Shown one piece after another: positions 13,306 to 50,494 of a stretch of 64,000 nt of DNA (position 1 is the stretch's first letter; every line of letters begins with the position of its first letter). The position numbers and the translations under genes were made by a program. The stretch covers positions 103,581 to 167,580 of IMG/VR virus record IMGVR_UViG_3300002231_001563; one strand, written 5' to 3'. Origin of the DNA: a virus. The notes beneath the pieces are model-generated. The model ran no database searches, had not been told where the DNA came from, and saw only the letters and a list, made by a program, of their open reading frames with translations.

Positions 13306-14085
13306 ATGGCTTTAGATATTACAAAAATTCGAGCACGTCTCGAAAACGTTAAGAACAATGGCAAGGCGGGAGGAAGCTTCTGGCGGCCAAAAGATGGAAC
13401 GCAAGTAATCCGAATTGTCCCCACTTCAGATGGCGACCCTTTTAAAGATTACTGGTTTCATTACAACCTAGGTCCGGATCAAAGAGGCGGCCTTCTTTGT
13501 CCCAATAAAAATCATGGTGAGGATTGTCCTATCTGCAACTTCAAAGATCAGCTTTGGAAGGACTTTAACGCAACACAGGACCCGGATACGATGAAATTGG
13601 CAAAAGATTTGTCACCTCGTCAGCGGTTCTTCTCTCCCGTTATGGTTCGCACCGAGGAAGGCGAAGGTATCCGTATCTGGGGCTATGGTAAAGAGGCCTA
13701 CACCTCTCTTCTCAACTTAGTATTAAATCCTGAATATGGTGATATTACCGACGTTGATGACGGAACCGATCTCACTCTTACCTATGGAAAACCTCCTGGG
13801 GCTAATTTCCCCAAAACTACCCTCACACCTCGGCGACGTACAAGTCCCCTTTGTGATGATATGGTCGGCGGAGATGAGGAGTGCACACGGCTGCTAGACA
13901 ATATTCCTAGTTTTGATAACCTCTTTCCGGTTAAAACCAAGGAAGAGGTTCAGGCGGCCCTTGATGGTTTCATCAATTCTCTAGCAGGAGATGAAGAAGC
14001 GTCAGATATTAGTGTTTCTCAATTGAGCGACACCTCCACTACTCCAGATGTTGTAGCGGCTTTCAACGAGCTTACAGGCAATTAA
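13306..14085 (+). CDS. single-stranded DNA-binding protein (T4 gp32-like)
   Basis: FWRPKDGTQVIRIVP, YWFHY, LCPNKNHGEDCPIC Zn site, IRIWGYGK, DITDVDDGTDLTL. Confidence 0.85.
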   Translation: MALDITKIRARLENVKNNGKAGGSFWRPKDGTQVIRIVPTSDGDPFKDYWFHYNLGPDQRGGLLCPNKNHGEDCPICNFKDQLWKDFNATQDPDTMKLAKDLSPRQRFFSPVMVRTEEGEGIRIWGYGKEAYTSLLNLVLNPEYGDITDVDDGTDLTLTYGKPPGANFPKTTLTPRRRTSPLCDDMVGGDEECTRLLDNIPSFDNLFPVKTKEEVQAALDGFINSLAGDEEASDISVSQLSDTSTTPDVVAAFNELTGN

Positions 14086-16401: not shown

Positions 16402-17354
16402 AGCGATTATTAGTTATCGATGCCCTTAACGCATACTTTCGCGCGTACATTGTTAATCCCAGCTTGTCTCTAAACGGCCAGCCAATTGGCGGGTATAAAG
16501 GATTCTTAGGAATTCTCCAGAAATTATGCCGAGAGATGCGCCCCGATGAAATTATTATAGCCTGGGACGGCGCCGGCGGCTCCGCACGACGCAAGGCCGT
16601 TAATAAGAATTATAAAGAGGGACGCAAGCCCATTCGCCTCAACCGCGATGTCCGTCATCTCACTGAAGATGAGGAAATGAAAAATAAGGTTTGGCAACAA
16701 TATCGCTTAATGGACACAATGAATCACATGCCTGTCATTCAATTGATGCTGGAAAGCGTAGAGGCCGATGATATCATCTCTTATGTAACTCAGTCGCCCA
16801 TCTATCAGGGGTGGCAAAAGGTGATTGTCTCAAGCGATAAAGATTTTTTTCAATTATGTGACAATGAAACTGTTTTGTACCGGCCGATTCAGAAGGTTTT
16901 CGTAAATGAACCCCGAATTCTAGCCGAGCATGGAATTCATCCTACCAATTTTGCATTAGCGCGCGCCCTAGCCGGAGATAAATCCGACAACCTCCCCGGC
17001 ATTAAAGGGGTGGGCCTGGCCACCATCTCAAAGCGCTTTCCCTTCTTCTCGGGGGAGGAGTCAGTTACTATTGAGGAGTTGTTAGAATTTTGCGAAAATG
17101 ACAACACAGGCCTTAAGGTGTTCTCCTCTATTTTGGAGGGGTCGTCTGTTATCGAGGAAAATTATAAAATCATGCAGCTTTATTCTCCCTCTATTTCTAT
17201 TGATGGGAAAAATAGGATTAAGCACACGCTCGAAAATTTCGAGCCACAATTTAATAAAACAGAGATTATTAAAAGAATGACAGAAGATGGCTTCGGAAAT
17301 TGGGATTCGTCCGCCCTATTCGCCACCTTTAAAAGAATTACAAGTAAGGCTTGA
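16398..17354 (+). CDS. 5'-3' exonuclease / flap endonuclease (PolI N-domain, T4 RNase H-like)
   Basis: LLVIDALN, AWDG, YKEGR, VEADDII, SSDKDFFQL, LAGDKSDNLPGIKGVGLAT. Confidence 0.93.
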   Translation: MKRLLVIDALNAYFRAYIVNPSLSLNGQPIGGYKGFLGILQKLCREMRPDEIIIAWDGAGGSARRKAVNKNYKEGRKPIRLNRDVRHLTEDEEMKNKVWQQYRLMDTMNHMPVIQLMLESVEADDIISYVTQSPIYQGWQKVIVSSDKDFFQLCDNETVLYRPIQKVFVNEPRILAEHGIHPTNFALARALAGDKSDNLPGIKGVGLATISKRFPFFSGEESVTIEELLEFCENDNTGLKVFSSILEGSSVIEENYKIMQLYSPSISIDGKNRIKHTLENFEPQFNKTEIIKRMTEDGFGNWDSSALFATFKRITSKA

Positions 17355-17379
17355 CAAAGAATGATCGGTATGTTATATT
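17351..17379 (+). promoter_or_regulatory. sigma70-type promoter
   Basis: TTGACA-17-TATATT with TGn; the ORF-track 'start' at 17351 is this -35 box. Confidence 0.7.
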
Positions 17380-17398
17380 AAAAAGGTCAGGGGGTATT

Positions 17399-18772
17399 TT
17401 GGCAAAAGAAAATTTCAGTCAATATGGTAAAGACTTTCAAGAATCTTTGTGCCATCTCATATTAGTGGACCGTCCATTCGCCGATCAAATGCTGGAAGTC
17501 CTAAATATCAATTTTCTGGAACTTAGGTATCTCCAGGTATTTGTTGAGCTAGTAAAGAATTACAGGGAAAAATTCACCGTCCACCCCACTGAAAAGATTA
17601 TGACCTCTATTTTAAGGACGGAATTGGAGGGGTATAATGAGTCGGTGCAACAGCAAATTAGAAACTATTTTGCACGGATTTCACGCGCCGAGCCTCAAGA
17701 TGTAGAATACATCACCCACACCTCTTTGGATTTCTGCCGGAAACAGAAATTAAAAGAAGCTATGCTTAAATCAGTTAAGCTCCTTAAAGATTCATCTTTT
17801 GACGAGATCTCTAATTTGATAAACGAGGCTTTGAAGCTCGGCGCCGACTCAAATTTTGGTCATGATTACGTGAAGGATTTTGAACAGAGATTTTTATTTA
17901 AATCGCGAAATCCAATTCCAACTGGCTGGAGCGAACTGGACGCCATCACTCATCAAGGTTTGGGCCAGGGAGAGTTGGGTGTGGTCATCGCTCCCACTGG
18001 CGCCGGAAAATCCATGGCCCTAGTTCATATCGGATCCGAGGCTCTCAAAGCTGGAAAAAATGTAATATACTATACCCTAGAATTGTCTGATACCGTCGTT
18101 GGTTCTCGTTTTGACAGCTGCATTACCAATGTTCCTTTGAATGATCTCCACTCCTTTAAGGAAGAAATATATGAAAAGGTGCAACTCCTTTCGGGCCAAT
18201 TAATTGTAAAAGAATATCCTACAAAATCCGCCAGCGCGAATACTTTAAAAGCCCATTTAGAAAAAGTTATTAGTCGGGGTTTCGAGCCCGATATGATTAT
18301 CGTTGATTATGGAGATTTATTGCGCCCTATTTCAACTTTAAGAGAGAAAAGGCACGAGTTAGAGACTATTTATGAACAGCTTCGCGCCTTGGCCCAAACA
18401 CACAATTGTTGTGTTTGGACGGCTTCTCAAACAAACCGCTCTGGACTTAATGCCGAAGTAATCACTATGGAATCTATATCGGAGGCATTTAATAAGTGTT
18501 TTGTAGCAGACTTTATTTTTTCAATATCCCGAACGGCGGAAGACAAGTTGAGTAATTCTGGACGTATTTTTGTTGCCAAAAACCGAAATGGAATTGATGG
18601 AGTAATCCACCCTATCTATATGGATACTCGCAATATTACGATTAATGTATTGCCGTCTTCCGGAGAGACTATTGGTGATGTTAAAAAAGAGGCCAAAAAG
18701 AGGCAAGAGAAGAAGCTCGTAACTTTATATAAAAAAGCAAAAAATACCGGAGGAAAAAATAATGTCAATTAG
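17399..18772 (+). CDS. DnaB/gp41-like replicative helicase
   Basis: Walker A APTGAGKS, YYTLEL, IVDYGDLL, WTASQTNRSG, AKNRNG; TTG start at 17399 after GGGGG. Confidence 0.92.
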   Translation: MAKENFSQYGKDFQESLCHLILVDRPFADQMLEVLNINFLELRYLQVFVELVKNYREKFTVHPTEKIMTSILRTELEGYNESVQQQIRNYFARISRAEPQDVEYITHTSLDFCRKQKLKEAMLKSVKLLKDSSFDEISNLINEALKLGADSNFGHDYVKDFEQRFLFKSRNPIPTGWSELDAITHQGLGQGELGVVIAPTGAGKSMALVHIGSEALKAGKNVIYYTLELSDTVVGSRFDSCITNVPLNDLHSFKEEIYEKVQLLSGQLIVKEYPTKSASANTLKAHLEKVISRGFEPDMIIVDYGDLLRPISTLREKRHELETIYEQLRALAQTHNCCVWTASQTNRSGLNAEVITMESISEAFNKCFVADFIFSISRTAEDKLSNSGRIFVAKNRNGIDGVIHPIYMDTRNITINVLPSSGETIGDVKKEAKKRQEKKLVTLYKKAKNTGGKNNVN

Positions 18773-25702: not shown

Positions 25703-26587
25703 TTGAGTTCATTTCACTTAGCAGGAATTATTCCTGTAGCGGGACAGCCCCTTGATTTTAAAATGGATTGGCATGATTCACTAATGCCTATCGCACCCGA
25801 CTACCTGGCAGTTGAGCGTGCAGTGTTTGAGTGTGCTTGGGCAGGATGCGAAACTATCTGGATTGTAGCCAATGACGACATGACTCCGTTGATCAGGCAT
25901 AGACTAGGAGAGTGGGTTCAAGATCCTGTTTGGATTGGGCGAAGGCTTGATCCCTATCCCTCACAAACAAGAAAGCAAATACCAATTTACTATGTCCCTG
26001 TACGCGCAAAGGATGTGGGCAAAAGAGACTGTTTGGCTTGGAGTGTCCTTCACGGCGCTGTAACTGCTTTCGAGATTTCTGCGCGCCTAAGCAAGTGGGT
26101 AGTCCCAAAAAGAAACTATGTGGCCTTCCCTTACGGGGTCTATGACCCTGAAATCTTGCGAGAACATAGGAAGACCATCTCCAGCGAAAAGCCATTTATG
26201 CTAAGTCATAATGGAAAGACGGTTCAAGACGGAGAATACCTCGGATTCACCTTTGACAAAAATGATTTTGTCCTCTCGCGCCGAGTAATTCGCGAAGGTA
26301 CGGGGAAATATAATTCCGAAGTATTGGAGGAAGGGCTATTTCCTAGGGCAAAGCTTCCGAAAGAGGAAAGGTGGTCGGCTCGTTATTTTTCCCTTGACAA
26401 AGTCTTCAAACCTGTTATAATATATAAAGAAAGTACAGTTGAAGTCCCTTGGTATCACAACATAGATTCTTGGGACCGTTATTGCAATTATTTGGGGTCC
26501 GACGAGAGGAAACTGGTTGAAAGACCCCACCCAATATTTATGAAATATCACGAATGGAATGAGATAGGAGTTGATGATGAAGAGTGA
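25703..26587 (+). CDS. degenerate nucleotidyltransferase (NTP_transferase)-like protein
   Basis: LAGIIPVAG...SLMPI...AVFECAWAGCETIWIV mirrors the sugar-1-P nucleotidyltransferase N-terminus but lacks GxGTR and the conserved Lys. Confidence 0.55.
   Translation: MSSFHLAGIIPVAGQPLDFKMDWHDSLMPIAPDYLAVERAVFECAWAGCETIWIVANDDMTPLIRHRLGEWVQDPVWIGRRLDPYPSQTRKQIPIYYVPVRAKDVGKRDCLAWSVLHGAVTAFEISARLSKWVVPKRNYVAFPYGVYDPEILREHRKTISSEKPFMLSHNGKTVQDGEYLGFTFDKNDFVLSRRVIREGTGKYNSEVLEEGLFPRAKLPKEERWSARYFSLDKVFKPVIIYKESTVEVPWYHNIDSWDRYCNYLGSDERKLVERPHPIFMKYHEWNEIGVDDEE
26394..26421 (+). promoter_or_regulatory. sigma70-type promoter inside upstream CDS, feeding dnaE
   Basis: TTGACA-16-TATAAT with TGn. Confidence 0.7.
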
Positions 26588-29500
26588 GATCCCTTTTGTT
26601 GGATTACATGCACACAGTGTAGCTGGGAGCATCTTCGATGCTATTGGTTATCCTCAAGAGCATATGGACTTTGCCTTTGAGAATGGCATGGATGCCCTTG
26701 CTTTGACCGACCACGGAAATATGAACGGCTTGCCCCATCAAGTCATGCATGCCAAAAAAATGAGGGAGGAGGGGAGGAATTTCAAGCCCATCTTCGGTAT
26801 CGAGGCGTACTTCCTCCCCTCCCTTGATGACTGGCGCAATGACTACGAAGCGGCCAAAGAAGACAAGAAGAAGCGCAAGACTCTAAGCAAGGACGTGACT
26901 GCGACAACGGTTGAAGACGAAGATGCATCCAAAAAGCAAACCCGGAATATCCTCAATCGCCGCCGCCACCTGATCCTGTTAGCACAGGACCAAGAAGGCT
27001 TGAACAATCTCTTTGCAATGATCTCCGAATCCTTCGGTCCTGACAACTATTATCGATATCCGCGAGTTGACTATGCAACGCTCAAGAAGTACTGCAAGGG
27101 GGTCATAGGCGCCTCAGCTTGTCTTGGCGGTGTCTACGCTGGCAATTACTGGGAGAACCGCGAGGAAGGCGAATTAGCAGTCCTCAATGCTATGCGCGAA
27201 ACCACGAAACAGATGATTGATATCTTTGGGGATCGTTGGTATGGCGAACTTCAATGGAATAATATTCCCGAACAGCACAAACTCAATAAATACATCATCA
27301 AAATGCATGAGGAGTTTGGAATTGAGCTTATTTCAACATCAGACTCGCATTATCCAACGCCCGACTCTTGGAAGGACCGAGAGCTTTACAAGAAGCTTGG
27401 GTGGCTAGGTAAGCCACGGCCGGGCTACGAAAGCGCTGAACTTCCTGAGGGTGTAGAAGAGATTGGCTACGAGCTTTACCCGCGCAACGGCAATCAGATG
27501 TGGGAAGCATACAAGAAATATTCAGAATCTTGTGGTGTAGACTATGACGACGATCTGGTGATGAGGTCCATTACAAATACTTATCACATCGCTCATGAAC
27601 GAATCGCAGATTTCCTCCCGGATAACACTGTCCGTCTCCCTGATTTCGTTATTCCAGCCGGCGAGACAGCGGATTCGGCATTGGAGAAGTTTTGCATTGA
27701 GGGCCTGAGGCGCCTAGGCCTCCACGCTGATGAGAAATACACGGAACGCCTTCGCCAGGAACTTGGAGTAATTTCGGATCGAGGTTTTTCTAAGTATTTT
27801 TTGACCATGAATCAGGTTAGCCAAAAGGCAAACGAGGTGATGTTGGCCGGCCCTGGCCGAGGCTCGGCAGCTGGGTCTCTGGTGGCATATGCCCTAAACA
27901 TCACACAGGTCGACCCTCTAAAGTACGGTCTTCAGTTTTCTCGCTTTATGCGCGCCGACGCCACTGATTATCCGGATATTGATTACGATGTGTCGGACAG
28001 TATGGGACTCAAAGAGATGTTAATTAAATCATGGGGAGAGGACAAGGTAGCCCCTATCTCAAATTGGAACACACTGCAATTGAAAAGTCTAATCAAAGAT
28101 ATTTCTAAATTTTATGGTATTGAATTTAGGGAAGTCAATGATGTGACGTCTGTTATGTTATACGAAGCCATGGGCCCCGCCAAGATGCGCCATGGCATCA
28201 AGACGGGAATTTACTCTCCTACCTTCGAGGAAGTGATGGAATTCAGTGACACTCTGAAGAAATTCTTGGCCCGATATCCTCACGTCAAGACTCATGTTGA
28301 AGCTTTATATGGTCAAGTGAGATCCTGTTCTCGTCACGCCGGAGGCGTCGTCATCGGCGAAGACCTCAACAGTAGAATGCCCCTTATTAATTCCGGAGGA
28401 GTTCGCCAGACTCCTTGGTCAGAGGGTCAAAACGTACGCCACCTGGAGCCAATGGGCTTTATTAAATTTGATGTACTGGGCCTCTCTACTCTAAAGATGA
28501 TCGAGGGTGCAATCTATCACATTTTGCGCCGCCATCATGGCATTGAGAATCCCTCCTTCACTGACATTAAAGAATTTTACGACAAAAATCTTCATCCGGA
28601 TGTGATGGACTTCGGAGATCAAAATGTTTATGAGAATATTTTTCACAAAGGAAAGTGGGCGGGAGTCTTCCAGTTTACTGAAACGGGCGCGCAGAACTTC
28701 TGTAGGCTCGCAAAGCCCACTAATTTGATTGACCTTGCTGCTATTACCTCCATTTATCGCCCTGGACCCTTGGGCGCGAATGTGCACAATGATTATGTGG
28801 AAGCTAAACGTCGACCCCACCTGCTTAAATTTATTAATGAGGAGCATCGCTCTGTGACGGAGGAGACCTTCGGCTTCTTAATCTTTCAGGAGCAAATCGC
28901 CGAACTGGCCCATAGACTAGGGAAAGACCTTTCTCTGGATGAAGGAAATGCTCTTCGCAAAGTCTTGACCAAAAAGGGCACAGGGAAGGAGGCAAAGGTT
29001 AAGCGCGCCCTCCATAAGAAGTTTGTTGAGGGGTGTATCGAAAAAGGTTTACAGCAACGTACAGGCGAGAGGTTATGGGAGACATTTGAATACTTCTCAG
29101 GATATGGCTTTAATAAATCTCACGCTGTCTCCTACTGCATCATTTCTTTTCAGTGTGCGTGGCTGTTGAACTATTATCAGGTTGAGTGGCTCGCGGCTTT
29201 CTTAGATAAAGAGCCTGAAACGAGAAAAGAGAAGGCAATCAATATTGCTAAATCTTTCGGCCTTGGAATCAAGAGTCTTGATGTCAATTCTTCCGGACGT
29301 GTTTGGGAAATTTCAAAAGACGGGTCCATGCTCATTCAGCCCCTTTCTTCTATCAAGGGCTTGGGCGACGCCGCCATTGATCAAATACTCGCTCATCGAC
29401 CTTTCGCCAACGTAGAAGAGTTTATTTTTAATGAAAAAATAACTTATTCTAAACTTAATAAGAAGAGTTTGGATGTATTGTGCCGCTCGGGTACCCTGAA

Positions 29501-29999
29501 TGGTCTTATCGATACGCGCTTTACTGGAGGTAAGCATTTTTGGTCTGCAATTTGTGTTGATCGCCCTAGAAAAGAAAAACATCTTTTAGAAAATATAGAA
29601 GCATACGCACCAGAGGGAGATTTTTCTGACGAAGAGAAGATTGGATACTTGGTTGAGTTAACAGGAGTTTTCCCATTCAACCGAGTCATGAAACCCGAGA
29701 TATACGAACAATTAAACGCGGCTTTAATACCCCCCATTGCCAACTATGACCCAGAGCTTTGTGAGGTTGTGTGGTTTATTCCGCGCAAGGTGGTTCCCAA
29801 GAAGACAAAAAATGGGAAACCTTACTGGATTCTGGAGGTCATCGATGACACCAATAGCTTGACAAAGATTCGCTGTTGGGGAGTGAGAGACCATGATCGC
29901 ATCCACGTCAACAAGCCATACATGGCCAAGCTAGAGCACAATGAGAAGTGGGGCTTTTCCACTAGAAGTTTAAGAAGAAATTTTAGAATTTTAGCTTGA
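26571..29999 (+). CDS. dnaE: DNA polymerase III alpha subunit (family C)
   Basis: PHP LHAHS...ALTDHG, GRGSAAGSLVAY, YPDIDYD, SRHAGGVVI, IKFDVLGL, FQEQI, YGFNKSHAVSY, C-terminal OB (KTKNGKPYW). Confidence 0.96.
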   Translation: MMMKSEIPFVGLHAHSVAGSIFDAIGYPQEHMDFAFENGMDALALTDHGNMNGLPHQVMHAKKMREEGRNFKPIFGIEAYFLPSLDDWRNDYEAAKEDKKKRKTLSKDVTATTVEDEDASKKQTRNILNRRRHLILLAQDQEGLNNLFAMISESFGPDNYYRYPRVDYATLKKYCKGVIGASACLGGVYAGNYWENREEGELAVLNAMRETTKQMIDIFGDRWYGELQWNNIPEQHKLNKYIIKMHEEFGIELISTSDSHYPTPDSWKDRELYKKLGWLGKPRPGYESAELPEGVEEIGYELYPRNGNQMWEAYKKYSESCGVDYDDDLVMRSITNTYHIAHERIADFLPDNTVRLPDFVIPAGETADSALEKFCIEGLRRLGLHADEKYTERLRQELGVISDRGFSKYFLTMNQVSQKANEVMLAGPGRGSAAGSLVAYALNITQVDPLKYGLQFSRFMRADATDYPDIDYDVSDSMGLKEMLIKSWGEDKVAPISNWNTLQLKSLIKDISKFYGIEFREVNDVTSVMLYEAMGPAKMRHGIKTGIYSPTFEEVMEFSDTLKKFLARYPHVKTHVEALYGQVRSCSRHAGGVVIGEDLNSRMPLINSGGVRQTPWSEGQNVRHLEPMGFIKFDVLGLSTLKMIEGAIYHILRRHHGIENPSFTDIKEFYDKNLHPDVMDFGDQNVYENIFHKGKWAGVFQFTETGAQNFCRLAKPTNLIDLAAITSIYRPGPLGANVHNDYVEAKRRPHLLKFINEEHRSVTEETFGFLIFQEQIAELAHRLGKDLSLDEGNALRKVLTKKGTGKEAKVKRALHKKFVEGCIEKGLQQRTGERLWETFEYFSGYGFNKSHAVSYCIISFQCAWLLNYYQVEWLAAFLDKEPETRKEKAINIAKSFGLGIKSLDVNSSGRVWEISKDGSMLIQPLSSIKGLGDAAIDQILAHRPFANVEEFIFNEKITYSKLNKKSLDVLCRSGTLNGLIDTRFTGGKHFWSAICVDRPRKEKHLLENIEAYAPEGDFSDEEKIGYLVELTGVFPFNRVMKPEIYEQLNAALIPPIANYDPELCEVVWFIPRKVVPKKTKNGKPYWILEVIDDTNSLTKIRCWGVRDHDRIHVNKPYMAKLEHNEKWGFSTRSLRRNFRILA

Positions 30000-45753: not shown

Positions 45754-46490
45754 TGGCTGCCCTGGCAGACATTTTCCTGTTTGATGTGGACGGAACTTTG
45801 ACCCCTCCTCGTTGTCATATCGACCCTTCTCTGGAAAGTGTCTTTATGAAGTTGGGGAAATTGTGTACGGTCTACTTGGTATCTGGCAGTGATATCTCTA
45901 AAATTAAAGAACAAATGCCCCCCGAAACCCGGGAGGTATGTGCGGGAATATTCGGAAGCTCGGGAAACGAATTGTGGATAGACGACGAATTGGTGTATGC
46001 TAATAATTTTGAACCTACGGAACGACTCACCGCCTCCCTGGAAGACGCCCTCCATAACTCTCCTTACCCTTTACGCACTGGCACCCACATTGAAAAGCGA
46101 CCGGGCATGATAAATTATAGTATCGTAGGTCGCGAGGCCACTCCAGAGCAGCGACTTGAATATTATAGGTGGGATCAGAAAACCCACGAACGCAAGAGGT
46201 TAGCCATTTCACTCATGGCGCGCCACCCAGAAGTAGAAGTGAGTATTGGAGGGGAGATTTCTATTGATATTTATCCCCGGGGCAACGATAAGAGTCAGGC
46301 AGTGCGATATATCCAGGAGGCTCATTCCCATAAACGCATCTGTTTTTTTGGCGATAAGACCCAGCCGCCTGGAAATGATTATAGTGCTGTGGCTGCATTA
46401 GGGGAGACAGACCGTATATATGCAGTGAGGAGTTGGCACCATACCTATGATATTTTAAAATCATATCTTGAGGATAATTATAATGAATGA
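45753..46490 (+). CDS. phosphomannomutase (HAD-IIB, eukaryote-PMM-like)
   Basis: FLFDVDGTLT, VSGSD, IEKRPGMIN, IGGEISIDIYPRGNDK, FFGDKTQPPGNDY. Confidence 0.9.
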   Translation: MAALADIFLFDVDGTLTPPRCHIDPSLESVFMKLGKLCTVYLVSGSDISKIKEQMPPETREVCAGIFGSSGNELWIDDELVYANNFEPTERLTASLEDALHNSPYPLRTGTHIEKRPGMINYSIVGREATPEQRLEYYRWDQKTHERKRLAISLMARHPEVEVSIGGEISIDIYPRGNDKSQAVRYIQEAHSHKRICFFGDKTQPPGNDYSAVAALGETDRIYAVRSWHHTYDILKSYLEDNYNE

Positions 46491-46821
46491 TGAAATAGAA
46501 AATATAGATGATATAACGGAAGAGGGCACTGATGACCTCAAGCCCAAGCCTCCTTCTAAATTGGCTCCAAGGGGCATCCAGACTTTCACCGTGTGTCGCC
46601 AACACGATGAGACTGGCGTTTCGGGTGAAGGCATCATCATTGAGGGTGTCGTTCTTGGGACTGGGCAGTGCATTATTCACTGGCTCTATCCGCCTCCACG
46701 CGGAGGTATAGCCATTTTCGACTCGATGACCGACTTTATTAAGGTCCACATAGAACCCCACCCAGCCAATAAAACCATTATTACTTATCAAGATGGGGAG
46801 CAAGAGTTGTATGGTGACTAA
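46483..46821 (+). CDS. hypothetical protein
   Basis: RQHDETGVSGEGIIIEGV motif recurrent in phage hypotheticals. Confidence 0.6.
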   Translation: MNDEIENIDDITEEGTDDLKPKPPSKLAPRGIQTFTVCRQHDETGVSGEGIIIEGVVLGTGQCIIHWLYPPPRGGIAIFDSMTDFIKVHIEPHPANKTIITYQDGEQELYGD

Positions 46822-49816: not shown

Positions 49817-50053
49817 ATGGAAGCAATAGAATCATATCATTCATACCCATTACCCGACCCGTCTTTTCAGTGGCGGCACGAGGCTCAACTCTATGTGCTG
49901 GAAGCCGCCGACTCATCGTGGGTCCTATATTGCGACGGTATGTCGGTGCGCGATACTTTTGGGTATCCCATTCGATTCGAGACGAGTTGGGATGCTAAAC
50001 GCTATGCGAAGGAAGCGTTAGGTCATGACGAATTAGTCTTGACATTTACTTGA
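49817..50053 (+). CDS. hypothetical early protein
   Basis: GGAG RBS. Confidence 0.55.
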   Translation: MEAIESYHSYPLPDPSFQWRHEAQLYVLEAADSSWVLYCDGMSVRDTFGYPIRFETSWDAKRYAKEALGHDELVLTFT

Positions 50054-50093
50054 CAACTTTTCTCTTGACCAAACCCTCTCCATGGTGTATAAT
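50039..50093 (+). promoter_or_regulatory. triple -35 early promoter, copy 2
   Basis: TTGACA(50039) TTGACA(50050) TTGACC(50065)-17-TATAAT. Confidence 0.85.
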
Positions 50094-50121
50094 ATATCAT
50101 AACTTAAACAAAGGAGCTTAA

Positions 50122-50280
50122 ATGCTATTCGACCCCACCCTCAAAGACCTCTATTCTGAAACCTCTGAAGAACATTATGGAGATATGTACGGCTACGCCG
50201 ATGATTACGACGAATTAGATTTAGATGAAGAATGCCCTGACTGGGTGATGGAACAGATAGATGAAGAACTCCCATTTTAA
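50122..50280 (+). CDS. 52-aa hyper-acidic peptide ending DEELPF (not in ORF track)
   Basis: AAGGAG RBS; MLFDPTLKDLYSETSEEHYGDMYGYADDYDELDLDEECPDWVMEQIDEELPF; 19 D/E, 1 K. Confidence 0.75.
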   Translation: MLFDPTLKDLYSETSEEHYGDMYGYADDYDELDLDEECPDWVMEQIDEELPF

Positions 50281-50494
50281 CAAGGGCGACGAGGTAACTA
50301 TTACCTTCAATAAGAAAGCATCATCGCGCACAAAGGGGCGCATTCGGGAACACGGCCCCGAGTTTGTAGTTTTCCAGTCCATTCCAGGCTTTCGAGGGCC
50401 AGGGGCACTCCAAGACCGCCCCTGCGCCCTGGTCGGCTCTTTGTCTACGGGCTGGTCAGGCTGGCTACCCTTTGAGGAAATTGAGATAGCGTAA
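50261..50494 (+). CDS. small beta-barrel family paralogue
   Basis: FNKGDEVTI. Confidence 0.55.
   Translation: MKNSHFNKGDEVTITFNKKASSRTKGRIREHGPEFVVFQSIPGFRGPGALQDRPCALVGSLSTGWSGWLPFEEIEIA

Follow-up and report, generated by a model that had tools for sequence, protein, structure and literature searches.

The first reading frame behind copy 2 of a repeated early promoter, in the genome of an uncultured phage from marine and other aquatic metagenomes, encodes a 52-residue acidic peptide with the C-terminus I-D-E-E-L-P-F. As judged from sequence comparison, this terminus precisely resembles that of bacterial SSB (the C-terminal tail, SSB-Ct) over seven positions, and the resemblance is both conserved and modular. 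The tail is proposed to dock in the pockets that receive SSB-Ct, the likely consequence being a competitive uncoupling of host enzymes from host SSB early in infection, a reading that sequence comparison leaves at about even chances. The window, by which is meant the whole stretch of 64,000 nucleotides that was analysed, covers the final 64 kb of an IMG/VR record of 167.6 kb, estimated to be about 92% complete, and relatives are 172-193 kb in length. Features of the window and of related contigs are collected in Table 1.

Table 1. Positions of the features discussed, in the window and in related contigs (L numbers)
Feature	Location	Strand	Basis or remark
52-aa hyper-acidic peptide CDS	50122..50280, stop codon included	+	ATG start, TAA stop; 52 codons, homologues, selection
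Shine-Dalgarno AAGGAG	50111..50116	+	Sequence; 5 nt before ATG
Early sigma-70-type promoter, copy 2 of nine 'triple -35' repeats	50038..50100	+	Repeat family D2
Promoter core, TTGACC (50065-50070), 17-nt spacer, TATAAT (50088-50093)	50065-50093	+	11/12 positions match in consensus scan
Conserved C-terminal module, residues 37-52 (ECPDWVMEQIDEELPF)	50230..50277	+	Amphipathic helix 40-46 (predicted) and extended tail
SSB-Ct-like heptad I-D-E-E-L-P-F, free C-terminus, residues 46-52	50257..50277	+	Tail tally, insertion variants, second family
Next gene, 77 aa, small beta-rich paralogue	50261..50494	+	ATG inside codons D47-E48 of the peptide; 20-nt overlap
gp32-type SSB of the phage	13306..14085	+	phrog_1192, E 3e-27; ends in DVxxAFNELTGN motif
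DnaE Pol III alpha region	26571-29999
DnaB-like helicase region	17351-18772
Second-family peptide	L101:12803-12976 (G002)	-	Ends LDPEIPF; same triple promoter and AAAGGAG
Second-family peptides	L144:601-777; L146:601-777		Two complete relatives, other metagenomes, same promoter
Structured leader	L006:5945-6030; L007:5946-6028; L013:3887-3972; L015:3863-3948		Upstream TATAAT in L006, L007 and L013; variant in L015
tRNA-Ile (TAT)	L006:4244-4319; L009:5523-5598; L013:3463-3538; L015:3435-3510		Relatives
PF26761 (Acb5) gene	L006:1434-1793; L007:1351-1677; L009:2287-2637		Relatives

A short acidic early gene under purifying selection

The reading frame, its length, the 19 acidic residues against one Lys and the terminal IDEELPF were all found as the original prediction had described them. 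The peptide contains 10 Asp and 9 Glu with a single Lys, no Arg and one His, and has a net charge of approximately -18. Aromatic residues occupy positions 3, 11, 19, 23, 25, 29, 41 and 52. The regular spacing claimed for them is borne out in part: Y19, W41 and F52 are invariant in an alignment of 47 rows (A2), while the spacing itself is loose, and two members end in Leu when all homologues are considered. The ribosome-binding site and the position behind promoter copy 2 that had been claimed were likewise present. The peptide gene lies about 30 nt downstream of the promoter copy, and a pattern search for the promoter returned four matches against none expected. The same promoter is found upstream of homologues in L002-L005, where the peptide gene is the first reading frame behind it in the loci read, and in part in L012 and L017, for which a matching -10 is present in the partly read upstream DNA; in L009 the peptide gene is preceded by another gene. 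In most of the loci that were read, (A/C)AGGAG is kept at a fixed spacing from the start codon; L012 has TGGAG. The sigma-70-type promoters and strong Shine-Dalgarno sequence point to a bacterial host. One homologue lies on a 5-kb contig binned as Planctomycetota, an assignment that is unreliable for identifying the host.

Relatives of the phage carry a conserved structured leader of ~85 nt between the -10 element of the early promoter and the ribosome-binding site of the peptide gene; the window copy is without the leader. The leader RNA includes a tRNA-like T-arm (GGTTCAAATCC) and a multi-helix junction fold with four compensatory pairs among four sequences. Comparison with Rfam returned a weak match to YrlA (Y RNA-like) of 16.8 bits (E 0.59), and the leader was not called as a tRNA by ARAGORN. 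A tRNA-Ile with anticodon TAT is encoded 0.4-1.8 kb upstream of the peptide gene in relatives, and no tRNA was found in the 64-kb window.

Three kinds of search (word-indexed, exhaustive with HMMER, and by profile) together yielded homologues in 69 clusters at 90% identity, nearly all of 50-56 residues and all from metagenomic or viral contigs. Several longer database forms are start miscalls in which the conserved ribosome-binding site is translated as ...NKGAEM; a separate subgroup of 67-75 residues has a genuine conserved N-terminal extension. In a codon alignment of five loci, the pN/pS ratio was 0.19-0.30 for the whole gene between diverged lineages and ~0-0.06 over the last 18 codons, with two near-identical pairs showing too few changes to judge. 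The last 18 codons of the window gene and that of L002 differ by eight synonymous and no non-synonymous changes. These sequence comparisons identify the peptide gene as a genuine gene under strong purifying selection, and since it evolves as a protein its translation is likely.

The start codon of the next gene lies within the end of the peptide gene, and translational coupling of the two genes is possible. The product of the next gene shows protein-level conservation in L002-L004 and L006. The overlap was considered as the cause of tail conservation and was rejected, since changes in the codons for Leu50 and Pro51 are silent in the peptide frame and residue-changing in the overlapping frame, and since the tail is still kept in lineages where the next gene does not overlap. 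In some lineages the start codon of the next gene places part of the constraint on D47 and E48; the overlap may contribute at D47-E48, not at L-P-F.

Resemblance of the peptide terminus to the SSB tail

The C-terminal tail of SSB is a hub that couples at least 12 replication, recombination and repair enzymes to ssDNA. Acidic C-terminal tails with an essential terminal aromatic residue also mediate contacts between replisome proteins in phage T7, where they are found on gp2.5 and gp4, the latter tail imitating that of SSB. Those tails differ from the peptide in being parts of large proteins with functions of their own and in serving the polymerase of T7 itself, and their motif (…D-F) is without the I/L-P-F signature. 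SSB-Ct has been defined as the six residues DDDIPF; in the proteins that recognize it, a hydrophobic pocket is accompanied by a basic residue that receives the alpha-carboxylate and by a basic ridge that receives the Asp residues (PMC3159472). Both the terminal Phe and the Pro before it are critical: replacement of the Phe by Cys is lethal, and ssb113, in which that Pro is changed, counts among the highly detrimental mutations of SSB-Ct (PMC3159472).

Whether homologues keep the acidic Pro-Phe terminus, a question raised with the original prediction, is answered by the 63 of the 69 clusters that end in [I/L/M/T/A/V]-P-F-stop after two or three acidic residues and by a second family in distant relatives described below. 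Position -2 is I or L in 54 of these 63 clusters and T, A, M or V in nine. The most frequent termini are DEELPF (20 clusters) and DEEIPF (16), followed by DEDIPF (7), DEDLPF (4), DEEMPF (3), DDEIPF (3), DDDIPF (2) and DAEIPF (2), with DEDTPF, DEDAPF, DDDTPF and DEDVPF, in which T, A or V is at -2, accounting for six. Two further clusters end in IPL and one in NFF; the tail is lost in three, one loss being explained by an apparent 5-nt deletion. The family consensus is thus hydrophobic-D-E-(E/D)-(I/L)-P-F-COOH, to be compared with F-D-D-D-I-P-F-COOH of E. coli SSB. As in E. coli SSB (...M-D-F-D-D-D-I-P-F), the heptad stands at the extreme C-terminus with a free carboxylate, directly before the stop codon in the window peptide (DEELPF-TAA), places (I/L)-P-F after three acidic residues and has a hydrophobic residue at -6 (residue 46, which is I or L across the family and occasionally M), the position of Phe171 in E. 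coli SSB. Insertion variants and the second family, both described below, likewise have L or I at -6. The segment that ends in the heptad may be flexible. Unlike the SSB tail, Glu is preferred over Asp in the peptide family. All 31 bacterial SSBs sampled, from one bacterial phylum, end in xDDIPF.

Three members with an insertion after E-Q-I-D-E end in A-I-L-D-D-E-I-P-F, D-I-I-D-D-E-I-P-F and E-S-L-D-D-E-I-P-F. These variants rebuild the heptad at the new C-terminus, which singles out the tail. Across all six frames of the 167.6-kb genome, no other stop-to-stop frame with 30 codons or more ends in acidic residues followed by (I/L/V/M/F)-P-F; this uniqueness, together with the purifying selection in homologues, indicates that the tail is more than a chance occurrence.

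The terminal D-E-(E/D)-(I/L)-P-F is one of four conserved islands, the others being (D/E)-P-(S/T)-L-x-D-L, S-E-E-(Y/F)-Y and E-C-P-x-W-(I/V)-x-E-Q-(I/L); the linker between the islands is acidic and aromatic and varies in both length and sequence. Residues C38, P39, W41, D47, P51 and F52 are invariant in the C-terminal module. With the three additional islands, as read from the alignment, the peptide has more to it than a tail; the ECP.W helix, SEEYY and DP[ST]L.DL are without counterpart in SSB. The peptide also differs from SSB in that it is without an OB-fold domain for DNA binding and tetramerisation, the whole protein comprising 52 residues, and it gave no Pfam match at E 0.01 that would place it in PF00436.

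AlphaFold predictions made with 14 or 47 aligned sequences gave a mean pLDDT of 65-73 and a pTM of 0.23-0.26, with short helices at approximately residues 7-10, 15-20, 22-31 and 40-46 and no tertiary fold. Tail residues 47-52 were predicted to be non-helical with a block pLDDT of 63, a value that is a prediction and not a measurement of disorder. The models fit a peptide that would fold on binding, not one presenting a rigid DNA-like surface. The description of the peptide as unannotated holds, in that no Pfam (E 0.01) or PHROGs family was matched and most gene calls are nameless; neither did the PDB sequence profile search, Foldseek against the PDB (0 matches) or the ESM Atlas return an informative match.

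A second family of early peptides was found in distant relatives of ~172 kb. One of these relatives (G002, 172 kb, 95% complete, with an SSB 60% identical to that of the window) is without the first family by HMM. Behind the same triple -35 promoter it encodes an acidic peptide of 58 residues that ends in LDPEIPF, the pattern of the family being MPYMHEKP...DYDP.P...IPF. Two complete relatives of this peptide, from other metagenomes and 55-59% identical to it, end in LDPEIPF and IDTDIPF. The second family is without the C-P-x-W helix; the promoter position, the acidity and the IPF-COOH terminus are kept. Position -4 is Pro or Thr where SSB has Asp. Similarity between the two families is marginal (BLASTP E 6e-4 over 13 residues; hhalign probability 4.8%), and the second family is regarded as a positional analogue, and possibly a divergent homologue, of the first.

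The tail was also found on another protein. In P0092, a predicted protein of 107 residues, the last 14 residues (P-D-W-I-Q-E-Q-L-D-E-D-T-P-F) are identical and follow a different N-terminal domain. The reading frame, ending PDWIQEQLDEDTPF, lies within the phage-like first ~540 nt (41-48% GC) of a 3.27-kb contig (L016:1-3270), a part that also carries the start of an MKFKP gene. The remainder is 30% GC and encodes Pelagibacter trpF and trpB, the TrpB being identical to a Candidatus Pelagibacter protein. The contig is probably a chimeric assembly, the alternative being a phage-host junction, and the Pelagibacter DNA was therefore set aside as a clue to the host. An apparent 128-residue fusion (P0091) that would bury the terminal Phe proved to be a gene-call artefact of reading TAG as Q; with translation table 11 the peptide ends in MPF-TAG.

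The SSB and replication genes of the phage

The phage's own SSB is of the gp32 type and ends in AFNELTGN without an acidic Pro-Phe tail, as originally claimed, and the PF00436 OB-fold SSB is absent from the whole phage record in Pfam searches. The motif (P/S)-D-V-x-x-A-F-N-E-L-T-G-N is strongly conserved in this SSB lineage (the window gene and L018-L097) and is probably a docking site for replisome partners of the phage. Among the 32 complete C-termini of phage SSB homologues that were read, the AFNEL-type motif was present in 29 and the IPF tail in none. A complementary distribution, in which relatives lacking the peptide would carry an IPF-tailed SSB, was rejected on these counts, which likewise give no indication that the peptide arose as the detached tail of an SSB. 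The SSB of this lineage occurs on more than 590 contigs of IMG/VR, which indicates that the lineage is abundant. Isolates nearest to it in SSB sequence share only 25-36% identity, led by Microcystis phage Mel-JY01 and followed by Lysinibacillus, Flavobacterium and Bacillus phages. Megablast and tblastn searches with the region and the peptide gave no match among 50,697 GenBank phages. A scan of 185,579 species genomes returned no member of the peptide family; its one match (L011), a chance one of 17 residues inside a 278-residue reading frame, is unlike the 50-56-residue family and was judged unrelated.

Replication and nucleotide-metabolism genes of the phage include those for a DnaE-type Pol III alpha, a DnaB-like helicase, RecA, a 5'-3' exonuclease and a class II RNR, and GroEL and ClpP are also encoded. 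Pfam scans of the whole record, which is ~92% complete and in which divergent genes could escape, detected no domain of a beta clamp, clamp loader or Toprim primase. Since its SSB is tail-less and no clamp, clamp loader or primase was detectable, the phage may need host SSB-dependent factors at its forks. The peptide gene lies in an early cluster of small genes, 36 kb from the replication module. In the same block of relatives, ~3.5-4.5 kb upstream of the peptide gene, is a gene with a precomputed Pfam assignment to PF26761 (Acb5); the window's equivalent by position (46468-46821) had no match to Pfam at E 0.01.

Proposed function of the peptide

The peptide gene would be transcribed early from a host-type sigma-70 promoter and translated from its strong Shine-Dalgarno site, giving a largely disordered acidic product in which the free C-terminal heptad would be the most persistent functional element. 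The terminal Phe and its carboxylate would dock in the hydrophobic pocket and basic lip of SSB-interacting proteins, with the acidic residues of the peptide lying on the basic ridge of the partner. Candidate partners are ExoI, RecQ, RecO, RecJ, PriA, DnaG, Pol III chi, RNase HI, Ung and phage SSAPs. Further affinity or target specificity could come from the upstream amphipathic helix (PDW[IV].EQ[IL]) and from the N-terminal motifs, and the outcome would be that one or more host genome-maintenance enzymes are uncoupled from host SSB early in infection. Competition with host SSB is the simplest consequence of docking since the peptide is without a DNA-binding domain. The analysis shows that the gene is real and has early-type expression signals, that the tail is conserved, modular and identical in pattern to SSB-Ct, and that an OB fold is absent; the binding partner and the role as decoy or recruiter are inferred. 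Conservation beyond what a bare SSB-Ct would need (C38, P39, W41 and Y19) may mean that the true target surface is other than the SSB-Ct pocket.

An SSB-tail decoy would be an effective tool for host takeover, given that blocking of SSB-protein interactions rapidly halts replication and recombination in B. subtilis and that synthetic blockers of the SSB-tail hub are bactericidal (PMC3594151). Reuse of the motif by mobile elements is indicated by prophage DUF669 ssDNA-binding proteins that carry DDDIPF tails (PMC13687109) and by lambda Red-beta, which binds the last seven residues of SSB (PMC13490951). The peptide is like these non-canonical phage or prophage DUF669 proteins, and like plasmid and phage SSBs of the PF00436 family, in being a mobile-element protein that shows a host-type SSB tail and presumably engages host partners. 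Those proteins bind ssDNA, whereas the peptide has no recognisable DNA-binding domain and would present its tail off DNA, which predicts competition and not recruitment to ssDNA.

A serious rival, an adaptor being as open a role as a decoy, is that the peptide acts in trans by binding a phage replication protein, for example the gp32-type SSB, DnaE or DnaB, through its N-terminal and helical motifs. The tail would then recruit host SSB-dependent factors (the clamp loader via chi, DnaG primase, PriA) to phage forks, factors that the phage SSB itself cannot recruit. The phage has DnaE, DnaB-like helicase, RecA, exonuclease and an SSB without an IPF tail, it shows no detectable clamp, clamp-loader or primase domain, and the extra conserved islands of the peptide imply a second binding surface, all of which are as expected of an adaptor. 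The distance of the gene from the replication module and its place among early small genes argue against this role, and the negative Pfam scans of an incomplete record leave room for divergent clamp and primase genes of the phage's own. On balance such an adaptor is considered unlikely, at perhaps one reading in a handful.

Small, strongly acidic, early proteins that occupy the binding site of a host protein are familiar from T7 Ocr and gp5.9, T4 Arn, phi29 p56 and Ugi, some of them about as small as the present peptide (gp5.9, 52 residues; p56, 56 residues). A distinctly less probable explanation is that the peptide is an acidic DNA mimic of the type of Ocr, ArdA, Arn, gp5.9 or p56, blocking restriction, RecBCD or UDG, with the Pro-Phe terminus incidental or part of the interface. 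The peptide resembles these takeover proteins in its size, its charge of ~ -18 over 52 residues and its early-type expression as the first product of its promoter, and the Acb5-annotated gene of relatives lies about 4.5 kb upstream. It differs from Ocr, gp5.9, Arn, p56 and Ugi in having neither sequence nor fold similarity to them and no stable fold predicted, the low pTM indicating no tertiary packing and Foldseek, PDB, Pfam and PHROG searches returning no similarity. Conservation resides in discrete linear motifs and the exact C-terminus, not in a charge array, the acidic linker varying in length and sequence, and in the second family the tail is kept without the helix. Of the properties that mark a DNA mimic only the high negative charge was found, with neither a fold or array nor homology, and the possible DNA-mimic role in the original prediction is thus not supported, there being no predicted fold, a variable acidic linker and no similarity to known mimics.

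It is more improbable still that the C-terminal motif targets another pocket, either that of the beta sliding clamp, which takes QL.L.F-type motifs, or the ClpP pockets that take (I/L)GF loops. Q45 is nearly invariant, Q-(I/L)-D-E-E-(I/L)-P-F loosely recalls clamp-binding motifs and the phage encodes a ClpP; yet the spacing of the clamp consensus (Q-L-x-L-x-F/L; Q-L-(S/D)-L-F) is absent, insertion variants move the Gln away and keep hydrophobic-DDE-IPF, and the second family has no such Gln. IGF loops are internal and need Gly, whereas in the peptide a Pro is found in every row of alignment A2 and the motif is confined to the C-terminus. That the peptide is a chance reading frame or the untranslated leader of the downstream gene, as its shortness (52 residues), the 20-nt overlap with the next reading frame and the lack of database annotation might suggest, is scarcely credible against 69 homologue clusters with conserved length and stop position, a pN/pS that is about 0.2 overall between diverged lineages and falls to about 0 in the last third of the gene, and a ribosome-binding site conserved at a fixed distance.

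With docking in SSB-Ct pockets as the preferred reading, it is tentatively suggested, at well under even chances and from sequence comparison, that these would be the first SSB-tail decoys of natural origin that stand alone, a class of early proteins widespread in an abundant uncultured lineage of aquatic phages and disconnecting the host SSB interactome; a search of the literature found no description of a stand-alone SSB-tail mimic or decoy. Such a class, carrying the heptad on a disordered acidic carrier, would shut down host replication or repair, or blind SSB-coupled nucleases. If true, a phage-encoded blocker or hijacker of the SSB hub would represent a new mechanism of host takeover, a natural lead for inhibitors of SSB interactions and a small probe with which the SSB-tail-binding proteins of uncultured hosts could be found, with the peptide family a case of phage mimicry of a host docking motif.
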